Origin: an uncultured Ignavibacteriales bacterium
GTDB taxonomy: Bacteria > Zixibacteria > MSB-5A5 > GN15 > FEB-12
Assembly (NCBI GenBank): GCA_964464605.1
Contig: CAYXJN010000004.1
Location: forward strand, 186,001 to 250,000
Direction: 5' to 3'
DNA: 64,000 nt
Translations under genes and position numbers: made by a program
Shown here: positions 13,053 through 27,782 of the stretch, piece after piece
Position numbering within the stretch: the first letter of the stretch is position 1
How the letters are laid out: the number at the start of each line of letters is the position of its first letter
Notes under the pieces: generated by a model
Database searches by the model: none
What the model saw: the letters and a program-made list of their open reading frames with translations, nothing else
What the model was told of the DNA's origin: nothing

Positions 13053-14924
13053 TCACGGACAGGCGGGCGGGGTTGCGCCGCTGTTAAAGAGATACTGTAC
13101 CAAGTAGGTCAAATCCGCAACAGTAATTCCGCTGATCCCGTTCACATTCGCTTCATCGGTACACGAGGGTGAGGTGCCGTCGTTGAACAGATATTGCACC
13201 AGGAATGTAAGATCCGCAACGGTGATCGTTCCGTTGCCGTTTACGTCGCCGCGTGTTCCCACGCAGCAGCCGGCAACTTGCACTTCACCGGAACTGGTGT
13301 CCGGATGAACCGTAATGCACTTGGTGATGAACCCGGGTTCATACGTATTAGGACCGCTCACGAACGGAGCGAAAGTAACCGGATTGGTCGTTCCCAAAAC
13401 GCCGTTCGGCACACTATAGATCACTTTGAGAATTGGTCCGGAACCCGGGGCGAGATCCGGCGCAGTATTGTTGGTTGAAGAGGTTAGGTTCACCACCAAA
13501 CGACGGCCGGGGAGGTCGTTAGCCGGATAGCTTTCCGACTGGAAATAATCCGTTCTGGTGCCGGTGCGATCGGTCGTTACGAAATCCATATTGGACGGGC
13601 CGTTCCAGTCGAGCGGAATCTGGAATTTACGAATCGGATGCGAGTTGCTGGCATAGATCGTTACCGTGACCTGTGTCCCTTCTCCGGTTACCGTCGTGTC
13701 AGCCCACATCGTATCGTTTAAGATTTCATTTTTCTCTTCGAGTACATAGAGCTTACCGTCTAAGTTGGAACCGAAAAACGCGCCACTGTTGGTGTACGGG
13801 AATCCGCCCCACATACCGTTGAAGTTGTGCGTTGCCGTCGGCCAGGTGTCGTAGCCAAGAACTTCAACAATGTTTTCCGGATCGCTGGCATCGAAAATCT
13901 TCATCCCCGCTTCATAGTGGGAGAAGTAGATGCGGTCTCCTTTCCAATACGCATTGTGAGTCAGGCCATCCGGCGGGTTGTACTGATTGACAAACTGCAC
14001 GTCGCCGAGATCGGAGATATTCCACATGGTGATATTCGGGCCGCCGAGTTCGTCGGTAGCAACCAGATAATCACGATCATCGCTCGGCCAGATGTTATGG
14101 ATATACTGAGCACCCGGAACGGCGATGCGCGTAATCAGCGCCGGCGCCATTTTGTTTGCCATATTGTAAATACCGATGGACAGATTAGAACCTTCCGCTA
14201 CATACAGTGTGTCATCAAGCGCGGTGCAATCATGGATACCGCCGCCGATACCGAAGCTGTTGACATAGACCGGGGCTGCCGGATTTGCCAAATTGTGAAT
14301 GCGGATTGAATTGTTCGCAGCCGAGGTTCCCTCAAGGTAGGCGTAGCCGTTGGTGGTATCGATATCAAGACTGTGTGACGTTACCAATCCACCGGGAGGA
14401 TAGGCCTGAAACGCGCCGACTAAATTGACACTAGCCGGCAGATTGCCGAGGTTAATAACCATTAATCCGGCGTTCGTTCCCGTACATTCAGACACGGCGT
14501 ATGCATAATGGTTATAGACACGCATTTCACGCCAGAGTACCGTTCCGCATCCACCGGTCGGACCGGGAATAATACCGACAGTGGTCATGGTGCTGGTATT
14601 GACGACAGCGATACCGGTGGCAACACCCATGATGGCGTAGTCAGTACCATCCGGTGCGCGATACCCCCAGCAACCTGTTCCGCCGAAGGTACCGAACGAC
14701 AAAATTCCTTTGTCGCAGATGTATTGAGCCGTGTCACCGGTTTCATACACAATCTGCTCGGCTTCTTCCGGGCTTGAAGCCAACTGCGTACCGGCTTCTT
14801 TGCTCGGCTTGTTCCGATTATCCCAGTTGGGATCGTTGAGTACCGAAAGCGGCACTGCGTACAGCGATGCGGAAATACAGAGCACCGCTAAGGCTACAGT
14901 TAACATTCCTCTGAATCGCGTCAT
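13053..14924 (-). CDS. Secreted choice-of-anchor B-like protein with cohesin-like and dockerin-like domains, paralog 1
   Basis: SD GAGGAG, signal peptide, same motif set, C-terminal CCVGTRGDVNGNGTITVADLTFLVQYLF repeat pair. Confidence 0.82.
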   Translation of the reverse strand: MTRFRGMLTVALAVLCISASLYAVPLSVLNDPNWDNRNKPSKEAGTQLASSPEEAEQIVYETGDTAQYICDKGILSFGTFGGTGCWGYRAPDGTDYAIMGVATGIAVVNTSTMTTVGIIPGPTGGCGTVLWREMRVYNHYAYAVSECTGTNAGLMVINLGNLPASVNLVGAFQAYPPGGLVTSHSLDIDTTNGYAYLEGTSAANNSIRIHNLANPAAPVYVNSFGIGGGIHDCTALDDTLYVAEGSNLSIGIYNMANKMAPALITRIAVPGAQYIHNIWPSDDRDYLVATDELGGPNITMWNISDLGDVQFVNQYNPPDGLTHNAYWKGDRIYFSHYEAGMKIFDASDPENIVEVLGYDTWPTATHNFNGMWGGFPYTNSGAFFGSNLDGKLYVLEEKNEILNDTMWADTTVTGEGTQVTVTIYASNSHPIRKFQIPLDWNGPSNMDFVTTDRTGTRTDYFQSESYPANDLPGRRLVVNLTSSTNNTAPDLAPGSGPILKVIYSVPNGVLGTTNPVTFAPFVSGPNTYEPGFITKCITVHPDTSSGEVQVAGCCVGTRGDVNGNGTITVADLTFLVQYLFNDGTSPSCTDEANVNGISGITVADLTYLVQYLFNSGATPPACP

Positions 14925-15108: not shown

Positions 15109-15138
15109 TTGACACACTGAACAAATGTTCAGTATCTT
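15109..15138 (+). promoter_or_regulatory. Sigma70-type promoter with a LexA/Cheo-like operator in the spacer
   Basis: TTGACA (15109-15114), N18, TATCTT (15133-15138); perfect palindrome ACTGAAC-aaat-GTTCAGT at 15116-15133. Confidence 0.7.
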
Positions 15139-15446: not shown

Positions 15447-18128
15447 ATGATGACAGTAAGCGAACTGAGAACATTCGGTATACCGGAAACAGTAATCGGC
15501 GCCTGGCAGAAACGGCAGGGGGATATTTTGCTTCCGGTGCAAAGCCGGGCCGTCCGGCAGGGGCTGTTAGCCCAGTTTGAACGGGAGCGGAAAACGGTGC
15601 ATCGGAACATGATTATTTCCGCGCCGACTTCCGCCGGGAAATCTTTCTGCGCCGAACTGGCGATTGCCAAAGGATTAGCTGAACGCCGGAAAAGCATCTA
15701 TTTAGTGCCGCTCAAATCACTCGCGGAACAACGTCATCGTGCCTTTTTGGAAACCTACGGCCCGCTCGGTGTCCGCTGTTTGATCGTAACCGGGGATCAT
15801 CCGGATCATGATGCCCCGTTTGCCGCCGGAGAATACGATATCGCGGTGGTCATCTATGAAAAACTCGATCTCTTGTTATGCGACCGGCTTGATCTGTTAC
15901 AGTCAGTCGGGTTGTTGATTGTCGATGAGATGCAAACTATCGCCGAACCGGGCAGAGGTCCGGTGCTGGAGCGACTGCTTACGACGGTGCTTACTTCGGT
16001 ATACAATCCGCAGATTATCGCGCTCTCGGCCGTCATCGGTGATCGCTCGCTTGAGCTGTTAGCGCAGTGGTTGGGAGCGTCTATTGTCGAGGAGCATGCC
16101 CGCCCGGTTGAATTGTTACGCGGGGTGTTGGTGGATAATCAATACACCTATCGCTCATTTAACGCGGGTCATCGTGGGCAACAGCAACTGACTAAGGATA
16201 CATCGGCCGAAAATCATTTCGATATGTTTGCCGAATTAGTCAAATCAGACAGCGGTGCGACATTAGTGTTTTTAAAATCCCGCAGGGAAACAATAGAACG
16301 GGCGGTTGCCTTAGCTGCACAGGTCAATTGGCCGACTGCGCAACAAGCGGTGGATGAACTGGGGGATGAAGAACCATCTTTCTTGAATCGCACGTTGCGC
16401 CAGGCCTTGAGTCGGGGAATTGCGTTTCACAATGCCGATCTCACCGCGCGGCAGCGTCGGATTATCGAAGATGCCTTTTTGCGCAAAGAAGTACGTGTGC
16501 TGTTTTCGACGACGACATTGGCGATGGGTGTCAATCTTTCCGCCGACACGGTATTTCTGGAAACGGTGAAATACGCCGAAGCGGAATATGAAGGACGGCC
16601 ATCGTTAGTACCGGTCAGCCGCGCTGAGTTTGATAATATGACCGGACGCGCCGGACGGTTCGCTTCCGAGCGGCCGAACAGCACCGGTCGCGCAATCATC
16701 ATGGCGCAGACACCGCTTGAGCAGGAGATTTTGTGGGATGCCTATATCGCTCCGCAAAAAGAGGAGCCGTTAGTTTCGGCATTCTCTCTCTATTTGATCA
16801 CTGATTGGCTCTTGCATGGAATCGTATCCGGATTGGTGCATTCATCCGTATCGGCTGAACAGCTGTTTGCGAAAAGTTTGTATACGACCTCAGGCGGCGT
16901 CATTGAAGATATCCCGAAAGCGCTTTCGACATTAGTTGATACCGAACTCGTTTCGGTGCATCAAAGCAGCACCTACGCGGCGACATCATTGGGTTGCGCG
17001 GTTGCGGGAAGCGGATTAACGATTTCACAGGCAACCTATTTGATACGTTCACTCTCGTCATATCAACCTGCTTCAACCGTTGAATGGTTAGCGCTGGCCA
17101 TAAGTATTCCGGATTGGCGCTTGCCGACGGCACTGCTTACGCAGTTTGAATATCGGGACCGGATTCCGCTGAAATCTGCTTATCGCCGCTATGAGGATAT
17201 GTTTCCCGGTATCGAGCGGATGATTCCCGCCTTGCGCGCCGGCCGGCCGGATCGCCGTACCCTTTCATTGCTCAAATGTCTGTTGCTCTTAGATGATTGG
17301 CGCGCCGGTTTACCAATTCCCAAGCTGGAAGAGCGGTACGGCATTCATCACGGACAGATTATTTCACTCGGTGAAACGATCGGACATCTGGTCAGAGCGA
17401 TTGCGATGATTCGAGAGGTAACCGAACAAACGGCATCCTGCGCTGAACTCTACGCGCTCGCATTTTCATTGCGTACCGGATTGCCGCCGGAACTGCAGCA
17501 TCTGCACAATTGTTTCGGCACATTTTTACAACGGCGGGAACTGCTCGCACTGCGCGCGGAAGGAATCACGACCGCCGCCGCGTGTGCCGCGCTCACGGAT
17601 GAGCAATTACACCCGTTGATTCATGGAATTTCACGACTACATCAATTTAAAGAAATACTTACACACATGTACGAGGAGGTTGTCATGCAAACGTCAGGTT
17701 CTCTGTCCACCACGCAGCAGCTTTCACCGCTGAGTTCCACTCAGCCGAATCTGGTTGAAGTCGACGGATCGCAGGAAGGTGAACGCTATGTTATTAAAAT
17801 CAACGGTCAGCCGGTTCGGTTGACGGCGAAATCATTCAAGTATTTTGCCAAACTCGCCTGGGCCCGGGTGAACAGTGAAAACGGCTGGCTGTTCAAAGAG
17901 GAGATAGAGGTCGGTTTTAATCAGGCGCGCTATCTCTATCGGATGAAACAGGAGATTGCAGGCGGCAATAACTTGCCCTGGCAGGTTATCGAAAATAACC
18001 GGTTAGGCTATTACCGGCTTGCTGTTTCCCGTGATCAGATTCGGGTTAATGTAGAAGCTTTGCGTACCAGCGACGATTACGAACTGCGTAAGCTGGCTGA
18101 AACAGAACTGTTGCGGACGGTAAATTGA
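15447..18128 (+). CDS. Ski2/Hel308-like superfamily 2 helicase with a C-terminal winged-helix extension
   Basis: SD TAAGGAGG; Q motif LPVQ; Walker A APTSAGKS; PLKSLAEQ; DEMQ; LSAV; FHNADL; TTTLAMGVN; NMTGRAGR; Hel308-like WH, ratchet and HhH regions. Confidence 0.88.
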   Translation: MMTVSELRTFGIPETVIGAWQKRQGDILLPVQSRAVRQGLLAQFERERKTVHRNMIISAPTSAGKSFCAELAIAKGLAERRKSIYLVPLKSLAEQRHRAFLETYGPLGVRCLIVTGDHPDHDAPFAAGEYDIAVVIYEKLDLLLCDRLDLLQSVGLLIVDEMQTIAEPGRGPVLERLLTTVLTSVYNPQIIALSAVIGDRSLELLAQWLGASIVEEHARPVELLRGVLVDNQYTYRSFNAGHRGQQQLTKDTSAENHFDMFAELVKSDSGATLVFLKSRRETIERAVALAAQVNWPTAQQAVDELGDEEPSFLNRTLRQALSRGIAFHNADLTARQRRIIEDAFLRKEVRVLFSTTTLAMGVNLSADTVFLETVKYAEAEYEGRPSLVPVSRAEFDNMTGRAGRFASERPNSTGRAIIMAQTPLEQEILWDAYIAPQKEEPLVSAFSLYLITDWLLHGIVSGLVHSSVSAEQLFAKSLYTTSGGVIEDIPKALSTLVDTELVSVHQSSTYAATSLGCAVAGSGLTISQATYLIRSLSSYQPASTVEWLALAISIPDWRLPTALLTQFEYRDRIPLKSAYRRYEDMFPGIERMIPALRAGRPDRRTLSLLKCLLLLDDWRAGLPIPKLEERYGIHHGQIISLGETIGHLVRAIAMIREVTEQTASCAELYALAFSLRTGLPPELQHLHNCFGTFLQRRELLALRAEGITTAAACAALTDEQLHPLIHGISRLHQFKEILTHMYEEVVMQTSGSLSTTQQLSPLSSTQPNLVEVDGSQEGERYVIKINGQPVRLTAKSFKYFAKLAWARVNSENGWLFKEEIEVGFNQARYLYRMKQEIAGGNNLPWQVIENNRLGYYRLAVSRDQIRVNVEALRTSDDYELRKLAETELLRTVN

Positions 18129-18203
18129 TTCAGTCGAATAAGTTTTTTGAAAAAAACCGGCTTCAGGTACAGGATTGGTGGTAAATAGGTTACAGGTTAT
18201 GTA

Positions 18204-18232
18204 TTGACTTCGCCAGTGCCCGGCGGTAAGCT
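18204..18232 (+). promoter_or_regulatory. Putative sigma70 promoter of lon
   Basis: TTGACT-N17-TAAGCT. Confidence 0.5.
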
Positions 18233-18287
18233 GTTCCGGAAAAGAGATAGGAATTTCTTCCGATACTGATATTCAGAACAGACAGTC

Positions 18288-20744
18288 ATGATAATACGAG
18301 CCAAAACGACCATACCTGCCCCTGAATCCGGCAAAGCCTCGACTCGCCCGATTCTCCCGCTTCGTTCCGGTGTCCTATTCCCCGGAACGGTGTTGACCTT
18401 GCATATCAGCCGTCCGGATAATGTCAGCCTGATTAATGCCTGCTCTGCGAATAAAGAATCTTTTGTCGCTTCGTTCACCTTAGCAAATTCCGAAAATGGT
18501 TCCGCAACACCGATTCACCAGGTCGGTGTGCTTGCCCGTTTGGTCGATACCCGTCCGGATAAACATGGTCCGATGGTCGTCACCATTGAAGGAACAAAAC
18601 GGGTTTCGATTAATGAAATCGCTCATACGACTCCATACTTGCAGGGAATCGTTACCGAAATTCCGGAAAAAGCCGGAAAGCATGAACAGTTCACGGCCAT
18701 CATCGAACAGATTTTAGCCGCAGTTCGGGACATTATCGCGATCGACCCGACCTATTCATCTGAACAGGTTCGGTTGTTGGAACAGCATATTGATACTCCG
18801 TCGATTTTTGCCGACCGCGCTGCTGCGCTGTTTCATTTGCCGTTGACCAACAAACAGGAACTTTTGGAGACGGTGAATATCGAAAAGCGGCTTGAACTGT
18901 TACTGGTTAATCTCAAAGAAGAATTAAATCAGGTTTCGGTTTTGCACTCGATCCGTGACCGGGTAGAGCAGAATATCGAAGAGGACAGAAAAAAATATTT
19001 CCTTCGTCAGCAGGTCAACGAAATCCGCCGACAGTTAGGGGAGGATGTCACCGAGGAGCGCGACCTTGTCCGCTTACGCTCGGTTCTTGCCGGTATTTCT
19101 ACAATGTCGCCGGAAGCCGCCAGCCGTGCCGCAATTGAACTTGATCGTCTCACGCAGTTGTCGACTGCCTCAGCCGAGTACGGCGTTACCAAAAATTATC
19201 TCGATTGGTTATTGAGTCTGCCCTGGGGGAAATTTTCGGCGGAAGATTACGCCATTGCCGATGTCGAAAAAATACTGAGCACTGAATACTACGGTCCCTC
19301 GGCGTTAAAAGAGCAAATTCTCCAGCGGATATCTGTTCGCAAACTGTTAGGCGGAACGCAGGAAGGCCCGACCCTTTGTATGGTCGGTGCACCGGGAACC
19401 GGTAAAGCGGCCTTGGCGCGCGCAATAGCCCGGTCGATGAAGAAAGAATTTATTCGTATCTCCGTCGGCGGTGTATCCGACATCACTGAGCTCAAGGGAG
19501 CGCCGCGAACATTTTTAGGGGCAATGCCCGGAAAAATTATGCGGGCGCTGCGCGATGCCGGCTCGTCCGATCCGGTCATTCTGCTTGAGGATATCGATTA
19601 TTTCAACGTCGATAATAATTCCTCAGTCAACATGGCGCTCTTGGATGCTATCGATACGCGCAGAAACTCACGCTTTTTAGACAATTACTTAGGCGTCCCG
19701 TTTGATTTAAGCAAAGTGCTGTTTATCTGTTCCGTTCGTTCATTCGAAGAGATTCCGGAAGCGTTTATTCCCCGGTTCGAATTGCTTGAGTTGCCGGGAT
19801 ATATCGAAAAAGAAAAAATTGCCATTGCCCGGAAATATATTATTCCGAAACTGCTCAAACAGCACGGCATCACCAAATCGGAAGTCCATTTTACCGGCAG
19901 CGTGCTTTCCAAAATTATTCATTCCTATACGCAGGAAGCCGGACTGCTCGGGTGTTCGCAGCAAATTGAACGTATTTGCCGTAAAATTGCCCTGCAAAAA
20001 ACTCAGGGGCATAAGCATGTTTGGAATGTGACAGAAAAGAATTTAGAATCCTTTCTCGGTTCACCAACCTTCATCCTGGAAAAAGCAGAAGCGAAACCGG
20101 AGATCGGTACCGCTGCCGGATTGGCATGGACCGGGGCGGGCGGTGATTTAATGTTCATCGAGGGCTTAAAGATGAAAGGGGAGGGACAGATTATCACGAC
20201 CGGTTCACTCGGTGAAGTGATGCGTGAATCAATTCAGGCCGCCCACTCATACGTCCGCTCAAAATCCGATATGCTGGCGATTGATTTTGCCGACTTCAAT
20301 CAGTTCGATATTCATATTCACTTTCCGTCGGGAGCTATCCCTAAAGACGGCCCTTCTGCCGGTGCCGCTGTCTGTTTGGTTATCGCATCGGTAATGTCGG
20401 AACGTCCGATTCGGAATGATATCGCCATGACCGGTGAAGTAACCTTGCGCGGCCGCGTATTGCCGGTCGCCGGTATCAAAGAGAAAGTTTCGGCGGCGTA
20501 TCGCGCCGGAATTTCACATGTTGCTCTGCCGAAAGAAAACCAAAAGGATGTTAAAAATCTTCCTAAAGATATTCTGCGTAAGATCAATTTCTCATTTATT
20601 GATCGTGTCGATGAATTGTTCGCGATTTGTTTGATGGATTTCACGCCGTCAGCCTATACGCTTGAAAAAATCTTCACCGAAGAAATCGAAAAAGCAAAAC
20701 GTCGTCGCCGTCAGCAAAAGGCACGCCTGGCGCGTCGTCACTGA
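18288..20744 (+). CDS. lon: Lon (endopeptidase La) homolog with degenerate AAA+ motifs
   Basis: Lon N domain LPLRSGVLFPG; protease PKDGPSAG (Ser) and GIKEK (Lys) intact; Walker A GAPGTGKAA and Walker B ILLEDID are non-canonical. Confidence 0.9.
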   Translation: MIIRAKTTIPAPESGKASTRPILPLRSGVLFPGTVLTLHISRPDNVSLINACSANKESFVASFTLANSENGSATPIHQVGVLARLVDTRPDKHGPMVVTIEGTKRVSINEIAHTTPYLQGIVTEIPEKAGKHEQFTAIIEQILAAVRDIIAIDPTYSSEQVRLLEQHIDTPSIFADRAAALFHLPLTNKQELLETVNIEKRLELLLVNLKEELNQVSVLHSIRDRVEQNIEEDRKKYFLRQQVNEIRRQLGEDVTEERDLVRLRSVLAGISTMSPEAASRAAIELDRLTQLSTASAEYGVTKNYLDWLLSLPWGKFSAEDYAIADVEKILSTEYYGPSALKEQILQRISVRKLLGGTQEGPTLCMVGAPGTGKAALARAIARSMKKEFIRISVGGVSDITELKGAPRTFLGAMPGKIMRALRDAGSSDPVILLEDIDYFNVDNNSSVNMALLDAIDTRRNSRFLDNYLGVPFDLSKVLFICSVRSFEEIPEAFIPRFELLELPGYIEKEKIAIARKYIIPKLLKQHGITKSEVHFTGSVLSKIIHSYTQEAGLLGCSQQIERICRKIALQKTQGHKHVWNVTEKNLESFLGSPTFILEKAEAKPEIGTAAGLAWTGAGGDLMFIEGLKMKGEGQIITTGSLGEVMRESIQAAHSYVRSKSDMLAIDFADFNQFDIHIHFPSGAIPKDGPSAGAAVCLVIASVMSERPIRNDIAMTGEVTLRGRVLPVAGIKEKVSAAYRAGISHVALPKENQKDVKNLPKDILRKINFSFIDRVDELFAICLMDFTPSAYTLEKIFTEEIEKAKRRRRQQKARLARRH

Positions 20745-20776
20745 CCGTCGTTCATACCCTTCCCCCTCATTTTCGC

Positions 20777-20806
20777 TTGACAATCGCATGCGAGTGCGGC
20801 TATGTT
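20777..20806 (+). promoter_or_regulatory. Putative sigma70 promoter, implying a leader of about 255 nt
   Basis: TTGACA-N18-TATGTT. Confidence 0.45.
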
Positions 20807-21069
20807 ACAGGGAGTATTCACGCCCACGCATCCGTCATTAGTAGTTACAGAATTCGCTGGTTTGGTTGTCATCGCATGATTGCCGGAGTAGTGGAGTTTG
20901 GAAATGTCAGCAACGGGAGTAAGGTACGCGCACTACCATCACATTCTCGCGAACGAGCAGGCAGAGCTTACCGATGATCGGGAAAGCAGGTGTCGTGGGT
21001 TTATTTCGTTTACCATCATTTTTGATACATTCTGTTCAGAACTTAGAAACCCGCATGGAGGCTTGAGGT

Positions 21070-23415
21070 ATGGCTAAGAAGTTGTTCGGATTGGTGTTTG
21101 GCATCGTAATGTGGGTTGCAGGCTCTGCGACTGCGCAGTTCACACAAAGTCCGGCTGATTCAGGGGCTGCCGATTCACTCATTATGGTGTATTCGGTGAT
21201 TCCCGACGTTACCACCAGTCAATTCAAGTTCCGGATGGACTTGTACTATTTTAATGACGCGAACAAATACATCGGGGCCGGTGTTGGATTCAAGTGGGAC
21301 AATATCAACATGCAGATGGACAGCGCGAAAGCAACGCCGATGATGGTGACCGCATTCGATGGCGGCCGGTTCTTTTATGAGGGGAACAACATAAACACTA
21401 CCAATCTGAACCGTCGTTTTCAGTTTGCCGGTTTCCAGCAGACCGGCCCCGGATTTTTGCCGGGTGCGAATAGACAGCTTTGGGCGAGTTATTACTTCAC
21501 GCTATCGAATTGGTCATTGACCGATTCAATCTGTCTGGACACGATGGTTTTCAGTGGCGGTACCGCGTACGAATTTCTTATTGAAACGAACAACGATGTT
21601 GTTGCACCGTATTTTGACGGACATTCCTGTGCCTTCGATACTGCTTATACACCACCCTCAGCGATTGTTTTAACTCAGGACTCACTGCATTTTTCCGGCA
21701 TAGCCGGCGGATCAAACCCGCCGGGACAAACTTTCCAGGTGCAGTCTGATAATGCGAATTTTCCTTTTACCCTGACAGAAACCAGCAGTTGGATGGTGGT
21801 GAATCCGCTGGTGGGAACGACTCCGAAAACGATTAACGTGTCGGCGAATATCACCGCACTTCCGGCCGGGAATTACAAGGATTCAATTTTAGTCTCTGCG
21901 CCAACCTCGACAAATTCTCCACAATACGTAGTTGTTACGCTCAGTCTGGTACCACCGCCACCGACAATCTCGGCGACACCGAGCACATTCATTTTTAACG
22001 GCATAGCCAACGGCTCAAATCCCGCATCGCAGACGCTGACGATCAAAAATACCGGCGGATCAACATTGAATTGGACGGTGGCAAACAGCCAGCCCTGGCT
22101 GGATTTGGCGCCGACAAGCGGCACTGACAGCGGTGGGGTTGTTGTGTCAATTGACAATACCGGTCTTGTTACCGGAACCTACACGGACACGATTGTCATT
22201 ACCGATCCGGCGGCGTCGAACAATCCGGTGAAACGCCCGGTGACGCTTAATCTGGGCAGTGATTTGCCTTCTATTGTTGCTCCCAGCAACATTACCATTG
22301 TCGTCGACAATGATTCCTCAACCATCGGTCCGCGTACGTTTGAAATTACCAACGGCGGTATCGGTACGCTGACCTTTACACTTTCAGAAACATCGCCCCG
22401 TATTCTGTCAGTAACTCCAAGCAGTGGTACGGCACCGCAGTCGATAACGGTGGATTTTAAGCTCATTGGCGGCAGCTTCCAAAATGATTATTTCGATACC
22501 CTCTGGATAACCTCGCCAGAAGCGACCAATTCGCCCTACCCGGTTGAGTTTTTTCTGCACTATATCAATAATCCGGCGATTCTGGCCGTGAGTGAAGACA
22601 CGATTGATTTACGGGTCTACGAATGTTCGCAGGGACAGGGGAATAGTCTGCCGACTGTTCTGTTCTCAGTAACAAATATCGGATTGGACAATCCGCAGGC
22701 ATTTAGTCTCACGTATGAATCTGACTTGTTCCAAACTGATATTACCAATGGAGAATTACCATCGCTTGTTGAAGTCGCAGCAAAAAATCCCGGGCTGCCG
22801 GTCGGCGTATACTACGATACTATTATCGTAACGGCGCCGGTTGCGTTAGGCAGTCCGAAACTGGTTATCGTACGGTACACCATGAGCGCTGGTACTATTC
22901 AACCGCAAGCGCTACTCAGCGGCCTTGATTTTACTGTTCCGACTCAGGAAAATGAAGGGCCGCTTTTGGGTTCTGCGCTTGTTATTGAAAATAAGTATGG
23001 CGGCTGTATGCCCTGGCACATTGTGGAAACGATACCATGGTTGTCTTTCGGTTCAACCAGTGGTGATGTAGCCGGCGCAACCAGTATGATTATTGATGCA
23101 ACAGGATTCGTTTTTGGGCAATACCCGGATTCGTTTAAGGTTGTTACGCCTGGGGCAGTACATGACACCACCGTGGTGAAGATTAAGATGGTGGTCTGGA
23201 AATTCTTCGGTGATGTCAATTACGATAAGAAAATTACGGTGGCAGACTTAGTCTATCTGGTGCAGTATCTGTTTAACGGCGGACCGGTACCAAAACCTGA
23301 GCGGCGTGTCGGCGACGTAAACTGCGACCGTTTCCCGACTGTTCAGGACTTGGTCTACATGGTACAGTACATGTATAATAACGGGCCGATACCTTGCGGG
23401 AATCCGTTTAAGTAG
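21070..23415 (+). CDS. Secreted surface protein: N-terminal beta-sandwich (possibly cohesin-like), several BACON/Ig-like repeats, C-terminal dockerin-like domain
   Basis: SD GGAGG and a signal peptide; repeats such as NPASQTLTIKNTGGSTLNWTVANSQPWLDLAPTSG; ends GDVNYDKKITVADLVYLVQYLFNGGP..GDVNCDRFPTVQDLVYMVQYMYNNGPIPC. Confidence 0.8.
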   Translation: MAKKLFGLVFGIVMWVAGSATAQFTQSPADSGAADSLIMVYSVIPDVTTSQFKFRMDLYYFNDANKYIGAGVGFKWDNINMQMDSAKATPMMVTAFDGGRFFYEGNNINTTNLNRRFQFAGFQQTGPGFLPGANRQLWASYYFTLSNWSLTDSICLDTMVFSGGTAYEFLIETNNDVVAPYFDGHSCAFDTAYTPPSAIVLTQDSLHFSGIAGGSNPPGQTFQVQSDNANFPFTLTETSSWMVVNPLVGTTPKTINVSANITALPAGNYKDSILVSAPTSTNSPQYVVVTLSLVPPPPTISATPSTFIFNGIANGSNPASQTLTIKNTGGSTLNWTVANSQPWLDLAPTSGTDSGGVVVSIDNTGLVTGTYTDTIVITDPAASNNPVKRPVTLNLGSDLPSIVAPSNITIVVDNDSSTIGPRTFEITNGGIGTLTFTLSETSPRILSVTPSSGTAPQSITVDFKLIGGSFQNDYFDTLWITSPEATNSPYPVEFFLHYINNPAILAVSEDTIDLRVYECSQGQGNSLPTVLFSVTNIGLDNPQAFSLTYESDLFQTDITNGELPSLVEVAAKNPGLPVGVYYDTIIVTAPVALGSPKLVIVRYTMSAGTIQPQALLSGLDFTVPTQENEGPLLGSALVIENKYGGCMPWHIVETIPWLSFGSTSGDVAGATSMIIDATGFVFGQYPDSFKVVTPGAVHDTTVVKIKMVVWKFFGDVNYDKKITVADLVYLVQYLFNGGPVPKPERRVGDVNCDRFPTVQDLVYMVQYMYNNGPIPCGNPFK

Positions 23416-23538: not shown

Positions 23539-24858
23539 ATGCGCCAAGAAAAACAGGTCAACACGTTCCATATCACTACATTCGGCTGCCAGATGAACGC
23601 CGCCGATTCGTCGACTTTGGCTGCTACGCTGACTACGCGCGGATACCGCCGGGTGGAGGATGAATCCAAAGCTGACCTGCTGATTCTTAATACCTGTTCA
23701 ATCCGTGAAACGGCCGAACAGCGGGTGTATGGGCGGTTGGGGGATATCTACCGGTACAAGAAACGTAAACCGAATCTCAAAGTCGCTGTCGTCGGCTGCA
23801 TGGCACAGCGGTTAGGAGATGCTTTAATCCAGCAGGTACCGCACGTCGATTATGTGCTCGGCACCGATCGTTTATTTGAACTGCCGGATGTACTGGAAGG
23901 GCAGGAAGGAATCAAATCGGTTATGACCGCCTTCGGTCATGAAAACATGGATTCGATTCTCCCGATCAAAGAGACGCCATACTCAGGGTTCGTAACGATT
24001 TCCCGCGGTTGCGATAATTACTGCACCTATTGTATTGTGCCATATGTGCGCGGCAAAGAGCGTGAACATTCGGCGGATTATATTGTCGATGCGGTCAAGA
24101 AGATGGTTGATGAGGGAGTGGTTGAAGTTATGCTCCTCGGCCAGAACGTGAACAGCTATAAATACGAAAAAACCGATTTCCCCGATTTACTTTCGCGCGT
24201 TGCGAAAGAAACCGGTATTCAACGGATTCGGTACATGACTTCCCATCCGAAAGATATGTCGAAAAAACTGATCGATTTGATGGCCGATGAACCGAAGCTC
24301 ATGCCGCAGATCCATCTGCCGTTGCAATCAGGATCGAATCGGGTGCTTGAGGTAATGGGACGTATTTACACGTTTCAGCATTACATGAAGATGGTGTCGT
24401 ATATCTACAAGAAACTCGACTATGTTTCGTTGACGACTGATTTGATCGTCGGTTATCCGACCGAAACAGAAGCAGAGTTTCAGGAAACACTCAACGCGGT
24501 CCAAGAGATTCAGTATGACAGCGCTTATATGTTCAAATACTCTTCCCGACCGGGAACGGTTGCGTCGCGGATTCCTGATGATGTTCCCGAACCGGTCAAA
24601 CTCGAACGTTTGGATCGATTGATTTCTTTGCAGCAGCAGATCGGGTATGAACGGAATCAGCGGGATGTCGGTACGACCTGCATGAGTTTGGTCGAAGGAG
24701 TCTCCCGTAAACATGCCGAAAAACAGCGGGCCAAAACTGAAGCGAACAAAACAGTATTGTTTCACAACAGTGAAACTCCGGTCGGCAGTATTATTCCGGT
24801 TCGCATCACTGCGGCAGACGCCTTCACCCTGCATGGGGAAGTAGTAGGAATAAACTGA
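23539..24858 (+). CDS. miaB: tRNA-2-methylthio-N6-dimethylallyladenosine synthase MiaB
   Basis: TFGCQMN, NTCSIRETAE, GCMAQ, radical SAM CDNYCTYC, LLGQNVNSY, C-terminal TRAM domain. Confidence 0.95.
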   Translation: MRQEKQVNTFHITTFGCQMNAADSSTLAATLTTRGYRRVEDESKADLLILNTCSIRETAEQRVYGRLGDIYRYKKRKPNLKVAVVGCMAQRLGDALIQQVPHVDYVLGTDRLFELPDVLEGQEGIKSVMTAFGHENMDSILPIKETPYSGFVTISRGCDNYCTYCIVPYVRGKEREHSADYIVDAVKKMVDEGVVEVMLLGQNVNSYKYEKTDFPDLLSRVAKETGIQRIRYMTSHPKDMSKKLIDLMADEPKLMPQIHLPLQSGSNRVLEVMGRIYTFQHYMKMVSYIYKKLDYVSLTTDLIVGYPTETEAEFQETLNAVQEIQYDSAYMFKYSSRPGTVASRIPDDVPEPVKLERLDRLISLQQQIGYERNQRDVGTTCMSLVEGVSRKHAEKQRAKTEANKTVLFHNSETPVGSIIPVRITAADAFTLHGEVVGIN

Positions 24859-27782
24859 TGAACCTCTGGCTGGCGATACTCTTCCCGCTGTTTACGCTGG
24901 CCGTGAGTATCTATCTGTTTGTCCGGCTGCGGTTGTTCAGCGATGAAAAACCGAATGGCCGGGTTCTGTTGTTTGCGGCGGCAGCGCTTGCTGTCGCGAC
25001 GGTGCTATGGCAGGGCGTGAAACCGCTTCCGGCGTTCAGCACCTGGTTTCTGCCAGGTGTCTATCCGATTTTGGAATGGGTGCATCTTGGGCTTATCGTT
25101 CTTGCCGTCGGCTTAGCGGTAGCAGGATTGTTTCGTTATGTCGGCTGGTGGAAAAACCGGCTCGAAGAATATCGTCAGCGGGAATGGGCAAGCGCAGTGT
25201 TGGTTTCACTCTATGAACAATCCCGAGAACCGAAACATCTGCTGGAGTTTCTGAACAGCGCGGTTGGCAGCTGTCTGCATGATGGTGTTGATGCCGCCGC
25301 GATTTTGTTTGTCAACCGTACTCGTCGCCAGTTTGTACTTGCGGCATCAACCGGAATTGCCCGGGAAGAAACTGCACAGCTTGAATATTACCCGCTCGAC
25401 AGAAACCCGCTCGGACAGTCGATAGAATTGGAAGAGCCGCTTATCACCGATACGTTCTTGTTTATCGACCAGGCCGGAACACAAACACCAAGCCGGTTTA
25501 CGGCGTCGATGATTCTTCCGCTCGTATCTGGGCAGGAAAAAGTAGGGGTTCTGGTACTCTTGTCGCAGCAATCGAAAGTATTCGCCCGCAGTCATGTGAA
25601 GGCATTGCAGCCGGTAGCCGGATGGCTCGCTGAGCGAATCCGCGCCGCCCGCTTACTGCGGGAACTGAATACGGCAAAAGAACAGCAGGAGCAAACGACC
25701 CAGGCGCAGATGGAACTGTCGTCCCGTTTACAGCGTGGATTAGCTGCGTCGGTATCACCGCAGCCGCTTCATGAGTTTGCCGAAACTTTGATCGGCTTTG
25801 CGGGGGCGACTGATGTACAATTCTGCGGCTTAGTTGGTGGCAGCGTAACGCTGTTGGGGCACAGTCAACGGGGACAAACCGAATGGTCGGAAAATTATCG
25901 AGCGGCATTGTCGAATGCGTTGGATGGTTCCAAACCGCTCGTTATTAATCAGGAAGGGACATCGGCTGATGGTCGTTCCTATTTAGTCGCTTCGACTGTC
26001 GTATTTCCGGTGCCGTCCGGCAATCAGAAGTTCGCACTGTTATTGCGCCGTGAACATGCCGCTATCACCCTTTCGGAATTAGAACTCAAATATCTTGCTG
26101 TCTTCGGTCAGCTTGCCTATACGCTGTTGCAATATCAACAGGTACAGAATCTCGATTCCGGCAGGCGGAAAGGATTTGATGCCGTCGCACGTCTACTGCG
26201 CAGCGAAACGGTGCCGTCGATTATTCAGGATGCCGGTTATTTCGCCCGCCAATTTGCACCGGTACTGAGAGCGCCGTCGAGTATAATTACCTGTATGCGC
26301 AGCGCCGAAGGATTTCTTGCCCCTGCGGCAGCGGTCGGTATTCCGCTTGAGAAAATTGAGGGCTTCCATTTTGAACCGGCAGAATCGCTCGTCGGAACGG
26401 CGGCGACATCTGCTGAGTTACGATTTGCTGAAGACAGAACAGAAATTCGGAACGCGTTTGATCATCTCGCCATTCCGAATCGGGAAGTTATCAATAAGCT
26501 AACGGCAAATCACGGTATTCCTGATATGCTCGCGGTTTGTCCGCTTGTTGCCAGCGGATCGGTGCATGGATTCTCATTGTTTTTGCTCTATGATGTTTCA
26601 CCTGCGGAACGGGGAGAGTGGCGCCGCTTGCTTACGTTGGCTGCCGGATTATTTTCATTGCGTGCGAGTATCGGTGAGATGCAAAACGCGCCGCACCACC
26701 ACGGCAGTATTACAACTTCAGTAGCCATCGAACCGGCGTTGTTGAATGAATTGAATAATCATTTTTCTATCGTCATTGGCAACGCGGAACTAGCGTCCAA
26801 ACGTGACGACGCAACCGGTGATATCCGCGCTTATTTTACCGGTATTATCGAAGAAACTGAGCATGCGGCTGCCAAAGTGCGCAAGCTGGGTGAAGGGAAA
26901 CCGGAGCAAGCAGCGCATGTGCCGGAAGTTGCTTCATTGGGCGGCGACTTAAACCAAGCCCTGAACAGCCTGCTCTCCGGATCACGAATTTCAGATACGC
27001 TGCACATGATCGCCGGCCGCCCGCGGGAGATATTTACCAAATTAGGAGCCGTATCCGCAATCCAGTTAGCCAGTGACAAGATTGCCCAGTTTGCCTCGGA
27101 AACGGTCCAGCGATTTGCTTCCTTGGCAGAGGATGATGATGTCATTACGCTCTCAACGTACGTTCAGGATGGTTACGCTTTTCTCGATATCTCACGTCAC
27201 CGCAAAAATTTTCCGCCCGTTGAGCCGGTTGCCGGATTTGGAAAATATCTGCTCAGCGCCGAAGCAGCCCGGTTTCGTCCGGCTGATACGTTTTTGAAAA
27301 AAGTAGCAGACGGTGAAACCTGGTATGCTTTCGACAGCTATTCGGCGATACCTTCTTACTTGTCATTTAAGTTCCCGTTAAAAAATCGGGAAGAGCAGAC
27401 CAGCGCAAAAACAGTCCGTATTTTGGCGATTGATGACCAGCCGATTATTCTGGATTTAATCAGTGCAATGTGTATTTCGCTGGGGTACACCGTTCGAACT
27501 GCGCCAACCGGTGAAGAGGGAATACGATTGGTTGAAAAAGAATCATTCGATATGGTTCTCACCGATCTGGCTATGCCCGGCCTTTCCGGTCTGGAAACTG
27601 CCAAACGGATACATGAAATCAGTCCGCGTATGCCGATTGTGCTGGTCACGGGCTGGGAAGCATCCGTTTCCGGTACCGACCTTGCAACTGCGGGAATAGC
27701 CCGTGTCCTCTACAAGCCGTTTCGAATTGAACAACTGACGGAATTGATTCAGTCTTTTGTCGAAAATCGGTCATTTGTGTAA
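24858..27782 (+). CDS. Membrane-anchored GAF-containing hybrid pseudo-histidine kinase with a C-terminal receiver domain
   Basis: About 3 N-terminal TM helices, GAF-like regions, H-box LLNELNN lacking His, eroded HATPase, intact REC (ILAIDDQ..DMVLTDLAMPGLSG..VTG..KPF). Confidence 0.8.
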   Translation: MNLWLAILFPLFTLAVSIYLFVRLRLFSDEKPNGRVLLFAAAALAVATVLWQGVKPLPAFSTWFLPGVYPILEWVHLGLIVLAVGLAVAGLFRYVGWWKNRLEEYRQREWASAVLVSLYEQSREPKHLLEFLNSAVGSCLHDGVDAAAILFVNRTRRQFVLAASTGIAREETAQLEYYPLDRNPLGQSIELEEPLITDTFLFIDQAGTQTPSRFTASMILPLVSGQEKVGVLVLLSQQSKVFARSHVKALQPVAGWLAERIRAARLLRELNTAKEQQEQTTQAQMELSSRLQRGLAASVSPQPLHEFAETLIGFAGATDVQFCGLVGGSVTLLGHSQRGQTEWSENYRAALSNALDGSKPLVINQEGTSADGRSYLVASTVVFPVPSGNQKFALLLRREHAAITLSELELKYLAVFGQLAYTLLQYQQVQNLDSGRRKGFDAVARLLRSETVPSIIQDAGYFARQFAPVLRAPSSIITCMRSAEGFLAPAAAVGIPLEKIEGFHFEPAESLVGTAATSAELRFAEDRTEIRNAFDHLAIPNREVINKLTANHGIPDMLAVCPLVASGSVHGFSLFLLYDVSPAERGEWRRLLTLAAGLFSLRASIGEMQNAPHHHGSITTSVAIEPALLNELNNHFSIVIGNAELASKRDDATGDIRAYFTGIIEETEHAAAKVRKLGEGKPEQAAHVPEVASLGGDLNQALNSLLSGSRISDTLHMIAGRPREIFTKLGAVSAIQLASDKIAQFASETVQRFASLAEDDDVITLSTYVQDGYAFLDISRHRKNFPPVEPVAGFGKYLLSAEAARFRPADTFLKKVADGETWYAFDSYSAIPSYLSFKFPLKNREEQTSAKTVRILAIDDQPIILDLISAMCISLGYTVRTAPTGEEGIRLVEKESFDMVLTDLAMPGLSGLETAKRIHEISPRMPIVLVTGWEASVSGTDLATAGIARVLYKPFRIEQLTELIQSFVENRSFV

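Follow-up and report, generated by a model that had tools for sequence, protein, structure and literature searches.

The 64,000-nucleotide window of an uncultured Zixibacteria bacterium that was analysed here (the whole stretch from position 186,001 to 250,000 of contig CAYXJN010000004.1) carries the gene for a Lon protease, Lon3, which is one of three LonA proteins encoded by this genome. LonA, in which a single chain unites an ATPase with a protease, is the classic example of such a fusion; Lon3, we think it probable, is a LonA-derived protease that is deficient in ATP hydrolysis, for which nucleotide would be, if anything, a structural or allosteric ligand, and which would in this respect have converged with LonC. 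It keeps the LonA body plan and an invariant Ser690-Lys733 catalytic dyad; the residues that in LonA handle Mg-ATP and the attacking water, namely the Walker A Thr, both Walker B acids, the sensor-1 Asn and the sensor-2 Arg, have all been exchanged. Judging from the alignments described below, the new set of residues is held fixed by selection over the whole order.

Lon3 has a full-length LonA architecture by Pfam and NCBIfam (Table 1), and its ATG start is backed by the N-terminus MIIR/K... that is common to its orthologs. The order of N domain, AAA+ module, lid and S16 protease domain is that of canonical LonA (TIGR00763; the Lon proteins of E. coli, Y. pestis, Thermus and Meiothermus; structures 6u5z and 7p6u), and solved LonA chains (7p6u, 6u5z and others) align with Lon3 end to end with an E value of ~1e-153. 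The family model TIGR00763 (endopeptidase La, NCBIfam) is passed with 716 bits against a cut-off of 608, and the stricter model NF008053 is missed (534 against 891). An AlphaFold2 model built with 68 relatives has a mean pLDDT (predicted local distance difference test) of 84.9 and is confident throughout the AAA+ and protease domains (84-94 by 10-residue block over residues 361-500), with the N domain predicted as a beta-barrel plus helices. As in canonical LonA, Pro689 precedes Ser690, and there are 42 residues between Ser690 and Lys733; both features are given as LonA hallmarks in PMC9569914.

The roles of individual residues were taken from Y. pestis and E. coli Lon, as set out in PMC7239648, from alignment to 6u5z and 7p6u and from the two canonical LonA proteins of the genome itself. 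In Y. pestis and E. coli Lon, Walker A is 356-GPPGVGKTS-364, the Walker B acids are D423 and E424, sensor-1 is N473, the Arg finger is R484, sensor-2 is R542 and the pore-loop pair is Y398/I399; R395/R396-E458 and E447 are documented further (PMC7239648). It can be seen in Table 1 that Lon3 lacks most of the canonical AAA+ catalytic set and retains no more of it than the Lys of Walker A and the Arg finger. Unlike canonical LonA, it has Thr replaced by Ala in Walker A, DE inverted to ED in Walker B, the sensor-1 Asn replaced by Arg and the sensor-2 Arg by Leu, and the cis Arg for the gamma-phosphate has been relocated from the lid (sensor-2) to the large subdomain (the sensor-1 position). Coupling residues are replaced too, R395 by Pro, the bridging E447 by Arg (DTRRN for DPEQN) and E458 by Gly; the conserved RGDP of LonA reads NSSV, and the DH(Y/F)(G/N)L of the genome's own Lon1 and Lon2 reads EYYGP. 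The pore-loop pair Y398-I399 is replaced by F409-L410 with its aromatic-hydrophobic character retained, and the Arg finger lies in FIPRFE where canonical LonA has L(R/K)DRME.

The original prediction, made from the letters of this stretch, had described five motor motifs as degenerate and the protease as intact. Aligned to 7p6u, 6u5z and the genome's own paralogs, all of the motifs it quoted are present where it placed them, and PKDGPSAG (Ser690) and GIKEK (Lys733) are indeed intact. Its account of Walker A, Walker B and sensor-1 stands; that of the pore loop and the Arg-finger region does not, the key residue of each (the aromatic and the Arg) being kept. It had overlooked the change of the sensor-2 Arg to Leu554, that of E447 to Arg, and the RGDP and DH(Y/F)(G/N)L segments.

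A word-index search returned 120 close relatives of Lon3 at 60-65% identity, the named ones mostly from Zixibacteria, and all 120 are labelled endopeptidase La or ATP-dependent Lon protease in databases; the label 'ATP-dependent' is probably wrong for Lon3 proteins. Together with 29 genome loci they make up 149 orthologs (150 rows with the query), which were compared with 115 canonical LonA sequences, these being representatives of length 700-900 with GKT[ST], a DE Walker B and DG[PA]SAG, plus the genome's own two paralogs. GxxGTGKA[S/A] is found in 148 of the 149 orthologs, the remaining one having Ile in place of Lys, and the ortholog consensus reads [LIV]ED[ILV]DYF at Walker B, F[IV]CSVR[STA] at sensor-1, PR[LF]E in the Arg-finger region and YT[QM]EAGLL at sensor-2. 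Over the 150 rows A374 and the Arg finger R496 are without exception, K373, E434 and D435 each reach 99%, R484 97% and L554 92%, and position 409 is aromatic in 146 (F 91, Y 41, W 14; D 3 and E 1 in the others). PKDGPSAG is present in 149 of 149 orthologs, and S690 and K733 are invariant in the alignment of the 68 relatives used for the model. We called a position a class switch if it was at least 85% conserved in the canonical set and at least 80% conserved as a different residue in the Lon3 rows; by this definition, going from canonical LonA to Lon3, the switches include the following: H becomes Y334, T becomes A374, D becomes E434, E becomes D435, K becomes Y438, GDP becomes SSV445-447, N becomes R484, D becomes P495, and two Arg residues become L554 and Q558. 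Altered residues that are fixed in about 150 orthologs are more than chance, and the original prediction would have been refuted by substitutions unique to this assembly; near-fixed as they are in 149 orthologs, they are not unique to it.

A Lon3 ortholog was found in 40 of 40 related genomes searched (41 of 41 with the query's own) at 45-65% identity, and the frame is open in all 41. Averaged over pairs of 30 Lon3 orthologs, the protease is 79% identical, the C-terminal helix 68%, the AAA+ large subdomain (320-500) 65%, the lid 60% and the N domain 40-45%. When Lon1 and Lon2 of this genome are compared with each other, the AAA+ large subdomain ranks first with 70%, and their proteases are 49% identical. 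We conclude that the AAA+ module of Lon3 is still constrained and that the strongest constraint has shifted to the protease.

The genome (2.8 Mb, 18 contigs) has three LonA proteins over the TIGR00763 cut-off, at 971, 916 and 716 bits, so that Lon3 scores 200-250 bits below its two paralogs Lon1 and Lon2. Both of these carry every canonical LonA motif, in agreement with the proposal of the original prediction that Lon3 is a paralog beside a canonical Lon. Lon3 is 34-37% identical to them overall and 42-45% in the protease domain. Lon1-type orthologs (at least 61% identity) are present in 40 of the 41 relatives, the exception being G024 (71% complete), where none was found; for the Lon2 type (at least 56%) the count is 39, with none found in G005 and G034 (81% and 76% complete). 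With two canonical LonA proteins in this genome and in nearly all relatives, ATP-driven Lon function is covered elsewhere. Across the same genomes identity is 61-75% for Lon1, 56-71% for Lon2 and 45-65% for Lon3; Lon3 evolves faster than the other two, though not freely. As a separate observation, Lon2 (G000:C10) reads GGLNEK where most LonA proteins have GG[LIV]KEK; the altered Lys is a non-catalytic one (equivalent to E. coli K720) and the catalytic Lys is kept.

To follow Lon3 beyond its close relatives we used a sample of 201 Zixibacteria genomes, in which the matches run at 56-65% identity in the query's own family, 45-53% in the same order and 38-45% in other orders; several families yield only canonical-level scores. 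Of five genomes from families f9, f11, f12, f14 and f17 (G063, G104, G089, G101 and G105; 94-98% complete), four carry a single LonA that passes the cut-off, and in G104 (f11) there are two partial LonA matches; the set of three Lons is thus a feature of only part of Zixibacteria. A tree of 58 rows was calculated with the AAA+ columns removed and the N domain, protease and C-terminus kept (LG+C20 with posterior mean site frequencies, PMSF; quick search), so that the trait under study cannot shape the tree. All 23 Zixibacteria third-Lon rows form one clade in it, with a support of 97 in the Shimodaira-Hasegawa-like approximate likelihood-ratio test (SH-aLRT); Lon1 clusters with the single Lon of other families (SH-aLRT 100) and Lon2 falls elsewhere among canonical LonA. 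Lon3 is thus an old duplicate within one Zixibacteria third-Lon clade. Next to this clade, with weaker support (88), stand three LonA-like representatives with degenerate motifs, of which one is named Eisenbacteria. A first tree, built on all columns with a simple model, had grouped all degenerate LonA-like proteins together, and it was set aside because it included the trait's own columns.

Motifs were read in 20 distant third-Lon loci. The canonical D-E pair occurs in none of them (it is EE, EG, EQ, EN, ED or DD), and all except the two f10 members, which have an Arg one column ahead of the sensor-2 position, have lost the sensor-2 Arg, the Arg finger or both. GKT or GKS is retained in f6 (with one GRT), f7, f8, f10, f15, f16 and f18, and f5 has GKA in common with f1, f3 and f4; the Arg finger is lost in the branches f6, f10 and f16, which persist, and the f5 proteins have no pore-loop aromatic. 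None of the 20 deviates in DGPSAG or in the catalytic Lys, and the combination of a non-canonical Walker B, an intact dyad and a basic C-terminal tail is found in all 20 distant loci as in all 149 close orthologs. The mildest forms are those of f7, where GKT, an E-E pair, a sensor-1 Thr and the Arg finger are kept, and judged by these residues the f7 proteins could still be active ATPases. Across the clade, degeneration of the motifs looks progressive, not the outcome of a single event. Two sets of similar sequences were noted in passing. P0147, P0156 and P0161 (the last from Candidatus Eisenbacteria) are LonA-like proteins outside the clade with degenerate motifs such as IEDIDEI, LDSIDGI and VIDDIDKL, and P0147 has lost the Arg finger. 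Extra Lon3-like matches (39-42% identity, 610-690 bits) stand besides the main third Lon at G019:C172:247-2652, G061:C6:42632-44926 and G098:C33:11716-14028, and could be further paralogs, transfers or bin contamination.

The known protein with which Lon3 is best compared is LonC. According to PMC3391209, LonC of Meiothermus taiwanensis (MtaLonC; MEROPS S16 subfamily C) has a Walker-A-like GPPSLGKHE, is without the Walker B Glu and both sensors, has no ATPase activity, binds six nucleotides and degrades unfolded substrates; ATPgammaS is described as pushing it into closed, active hexamers (PMC13069640). LonC and Lon3 thus have in common that their Walker and sensor residues are degenerate while the GK of the P-loop is kept, though the two sites are analogous and their homology does not extend to the details. 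LonC lacks the LonA N domain and has instead an N-terminal extension of its own and a helical-hairpin insertion (PMC9569914, PMC3391209), whereas Lon3 has the LonA N domain; LonC has Asp before the catalytic Ser (PMC9569914), whereas Lon3 has Pro689-Ser690. The match of Lon3 to the LonC-type chain 4fwg is limited to residues 643-740 (E 2e-4), with none over the AAA-like module. The N domain, the Pro-Ser pair and the position of the 4fwg match outside the AAA-like module argue that the likeness to LonC is convergent and that Lon3 is not a member of LonC. By analogy, we think that Lon3 most likely works like LonC, and that it would be a LonA by descent and LonC-like in its likely operation.

Two further features of Lon3, its C-terminus and its genomic position, bear on where it might act. 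Compared with canonical LonA, Lon3 has an additional conserved C-terminal helix and a polybasic tail: after residue 782, Lon3 proteins share the consensus LDFTPSxYTLEKIFAxEIEKAKKK, which is followed by a variable Lys/Arg-rich tail. The tail of the query reads KRRRRQQKARLARRH, and the helix at 792-815 is modelled at low confidence. The basic tail that the original prediction had pointed out is present (11 Lys plus Arg in 36 residues), and the median is 15 in 42.5 residues over the 150 Lon3 rows versus 2 in 24 over the 115 canonical LonA proteins; the 20 distant loci all have such a tail, with 12-25 Lys plus Arg.

The gene directly upstream of Lon3 codes for a Hel308-type helicase. This order is found in 22 of 29 loci of related genomes (searched with 1.5-kb flanks; one of the seven misses starts inside Lon3) and in 8 of 9 Zixibacteria loci of the species collection, with an insert of 2.1 kb in one and the ninth locus beginning inside Lon3. 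In a hand tally of the first 21 genomes listed below the query's own, Hel308 was no more than 420 nucleotides away and on the same strand in 18 genomes; in 2 others it lay within 2 kb, and in the last one it was on another contig. The spacers are 88-302 nucleotides long in 29 of 30 cases. Among the distant loci, the order is found in 7 of 20, belonging to f5, f8 and f18, and not in f6, f7, f10, f15 and f16. The families with this linkage fall together in a subclade of 12 rows in the tree without AAA+ columns (SH-aLRT 94), from which it follows that the linkage had a single origin and was kept afterwards. The promoter of the zinc-ribbon/Hel308 operon has TTGACA followed at once by the palindrome CTGAACAAATGTTCAG (GAAC-N4-GTTC, LexA-like; window 15109-15128).

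On the reading of Lon3 as a hydrolysis-deficient protease, the glycine-rich loop, Lys373, the trans Arg finger and the new Arg484 would still build a pocket for phosphates. Lacking the Thr ligand and having its two acids interchanged, this pocket would bind nucleotide, possibly without Mg2+, and hydrolysis would be very slow or absent; from what is known of P-loop NTPases and AAA+ proteins, phosphate binding should persist in a site of this kind, whereas Mg-ATP should be hydrolysed poorly or not at all. The part of the nucleotide would then be structural or allosteric: its binding would close the hexamer and turn the protease on, as ATPgammaS does to LonC. With the sensor-2 Arg lost, the lid could not sense the nucleotide state any more, and it is this sensing that drives the power stroke; the substrates would be unfolded or disordered chains that reach the chamber without mechanical unfolding. 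In the most speculative step, the polybasic tail might tether Lon3 to a polyanion, with DNA as the obvious candidate because of the fixed place of Lon3 after the Hel308 repair-helicase operon.

Several points weigh against this reading. Everything said about hydrolysis, the 'ATPase-dead' of the original prediction included, rests on residue identity, the exchange of Asp-Glu for Glu-Asp is chemically conservative, and some AAA+ switch proteins function with non-standard Walker B acids. The Arg finger (150/150) and the pore-loop aromatic (146/150) belong to the motor, and it is not obvious why a purely passive ring should need them. As the f7 proteins may be active ATPases, the ancestor of the clade may still have hydrolysed ATP. 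In this genome the basic tail sets Lon3 apart by degree, the tails of Lon1 and Lon2 being shorter and also fairly basic (6/21 and 7/29 Lys plus Arg), and a few canonical LonA representatives also have basic tails. Hel308 is near-universal in the phylum, being present in 189 of the 201 genomes including families in which no third Lon was found; its co-occurrence with Lon3 is for this reason uninformative and was dropped as evidence, leaving only the adjacency as informative. Mg-free binding and DNA tethering, finally, are predictions.

An alternative to be weighed against loss of hydrolysis is that Lon3 is a non-canonical and probably slow ATPase whose protease is still ATP-dependent or ATP-switched, with altered kinetics; Glu434 would take the Mg2+ contact, Asp435 or a water network would act as the base, and Arg484 would replace the sensor-2 Arg at the gamma-phosphate. 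The substitutions do look compensatory, in that an Arg is lost at sensor-2 and gained at sensor-1 and the acids are swapped and not removed; moreover, the Arg finger is invariant, the pore loop almost always aromatic, the AAA+ module well conserved and confidently folded in the model, and the mild f7 relatives retain GKT, the Walker B Glu and the Arg finger. Against this, the Walker A Ser/Thr is a direct Mg2+ ligand in P-loop NTPases, and slow hydrolysis is disfavoured because this position is Ala in every row. The residues that couple the nucleotide site to the pore (E447, E458 and R395) have been replaced too, and other branches of the clade keep the protease with their Arg finger gone or with Gly, Gln or Asn in place of the catalytic Glu, which suggests that the lineage tolerates loss of hydrolysis. 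We regard a slow ATPase as unlikely, though as a possibility to be taken seriously.

A bolder extension of the preferred reading, which we hold to be improbable, would make Lon3 a DNA-tethered, ATP-hydrolysis-independent protease that works with the LexA-controlled Hel308. Its tail would hold a permanently assembled chamber on DNA, where it would clear DNA-bound or cross-linked proteins exposed by the helicase at stalled or damaged forks, and the rebuilt site would be a Mg-free sensor of ATP or polyphosphate that gates the protease. If true, Lon3 and Hel308 would be a bacterial counterpart of the eukaryotic pairing of repair protease and helicase.

The original prediction had also offered Lon3 as a regulatory subunit of mixed hexamers, and in that case it would lend its Arg finger to the active site of a neighbouring Lon1 or Lon2, while the site of Lon3 itself would not hydrolyse ATP. 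Nearly all relatives have Lon1 and Lon2 as well as Lon3, and the specific support in the sequences would be the trans Arg finger, the one catalytic ATPase residue that is invariant; however, Lon3 has low identity to Lon1 and Lon2, even in the protease domain, which makes up much of the ring; its N domain and tail are distinct and conserved; and branches without the Arg finger (f6, f10, f16) persist. We consider mixed hexamers quite improbable. We know of no mixed LonA hexamers in bacteria with several Lons, which we likewise count against it. It is very improbable that Lon3 is chiefly a chaperone or DNA-bound scaffold, as proposed for heptameric LonC: although LonC is reported (PMC13069640) to have a dual chaperone-protease function and no ATPase, and the polybasic tail of Lon3 would suit such a role, the protease is the most conserved part of Lon3 and its dyad is invariant in every member examined.

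That the substitutions are a sequencing or assembly artefact, or mark a decaying gene in early pseudogenisation, is effectively ruled out despite the somewhat faster evolution of Lon3, by the open frames of its relatives, by the same residues in the 149 orthologs and by single metagenome contigs from three runs of three studies that span 17600-21000 with 0, 0 and 1 differences, some of which runs may be the source of the DNA. The view of the original prediction that the gene is not decaying is borne out by the open frames and by the higher conservation of the AAA+ large subdomain than of the N domain.

LonC, of different architecture, is the only described Lon without an ATPase. Lon3, in contrast, has the full LonA body plan with a rebuilt nucleotide site, frozen by selection across a phylum-level lineage and beside two normal LonA proteins. 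It is a natural experiment on what an AAA+ ring does once ATP is not hydrolysed, be it assembly, gating or sensing, and offers a correlated set of substitutions (T to A, DE to ED, N to R, R to L); its fixed place behind a helicase operon of SOS type and its polybasic tail make a concrete hypothesis of a DNA-linked role. We consider it of moderate to high interest for the mechanism of AAA+ proteases. The literature that we found covers LonA, LonB, LonC, LonBA and Lon-like-Ms, and we found no description of a natural LonA with such a rebuilt nucleotide site, or of any Lon in Zixibacteria, among open-access PMC and bioRxiv articles. AsrA of Pseudomonas is an extra LonA-type paralog beside a housekeeping lon, and it is called an ATP-dependent protease (bioRxiv 10.64898/2026.09.03.749167).

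Table 1. Lon3, its motifs and neighbouring features in the window (positions are those of the window)
Feature	Position	Strand	Details
Lon3 open reading frame	18288..20744	+	818 aa plus stop
LonA N-terminal substrate-binding domain	18345..18917	+	residues 20-210; PF02190 (LON_substr_bdg), E 4e-35
AAA+ large subdomain	19374..19781	+	residues 363-498; PF00004, E 3e-16
Walker A GAPGTGKAA (canonical GPPGVGKTS)	19386..19412	+	Lys373 kept, Thr to Ala374
Pore-loop-1 region GAPRTFLG (canonical GHRRTYIG)	19497..19520	+	F409 and L410 kept; His and Arg395 equivalents lost
Walker B LLEDID (canonical L(L/I)DE(I/V)D)	19581..19598	+	Asp-Glu inverted to Glu434-Asp435
Sensor-1 strand FICSVRS (canonical FITTAN)	19722..19742	+	Asn473 equivalent is Arg484, codon 19737-19739
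Trans Arg finger Arg496 (E. coli/Y. pestis R484)	19773..19775	+	kept
Lon lid (small AAA+ subdomain)	19857..20012	+	residues 524-575; PF22667 (Lon_lid)
Sensor-2 YTQEAGLLG (canonical YTRE(A/S)G(V/L)R)	19926..19952	+	inside lid; Arg542 to Leu554
S16 protease domain	20028..20633	+	residues 581-782; PF05362 (Lon_C), E 4e-79
Catalytic Ser690	20355-20357	+	motif PKDGPSAG
Catalytic Lys733	20484-20486	+	motif GIKEK
Clade-specific C-terminal extension	20634..20741	+	conserved helix (..FTPSAYTLEKIFTEEIEKAK), then K/R-rich tail
Candidate own promoter of Lon3	18204..18232	+	TTGACT 18204-18209, 17-nt spacer, TAAGCT 18227-18232
Hel308-type helicase gene	15447..18128	+	directly upstream of Lon3, same strand, 159-nt spacer
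Choice-of-anchor B family protein	13053-14924	-	623 aa; C-terminal dockerin-like repeat; adjoins helicase operon
Protein with BACON_2 and weak dockerin matches	21070-23415	+	781 aa; downstream of Lon3
Protein with GAF and receiver domains	24858-27782	+	974 aa; GAF (128-261), C-terminal receiver domain (855-964); Pfam

The original prediction had credited Lon3 with a promoter of its own, and comparison of the spacers supports this. A -35-like box, [TG]TGAC[AT], lies 55-100 nucleotides before the start codon in 17 of 30 Hel308-Lon3 spacers, versus a mean of 1.4 in mononucleotide shuffles; the candidate in the query (Table 1) has a weak -10 and was not listed by a simple consensus promoter scan. 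A simple scan of the spacer found no terminator-like site between Hel308 and Lon3, so read-through from Hel308 may occur, and the sole inverted repeat of the spacer is a weak 9-nucleotide palindrome. LexA control of Lon3 itself was considered and rejected, as no LexA-type GAAC-N4-GTTC box was found within 260 nucleotides upstream of Lon3 in the query and 11 orthologous loci. Two 151-nucleotide contigs of a biofilm metatranscriptome run are identical to 18633-18783 and 18836-18986, the remaining stretch being uncovered there; these are at most a weak hint of Lon3 expression, since DNA can occur in such libraries.

The BACON/dockerin protein keeps its position downstream of Lon3 in most orthologous loci, and MiaB comes next in the window. 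On the other side, a choice-of-anchor B family protein is also found upstream in loci L039 and L043. In the 974-residue protein, the roughly 590 residues between the GAF and receiver domains have no family match in Pfam.

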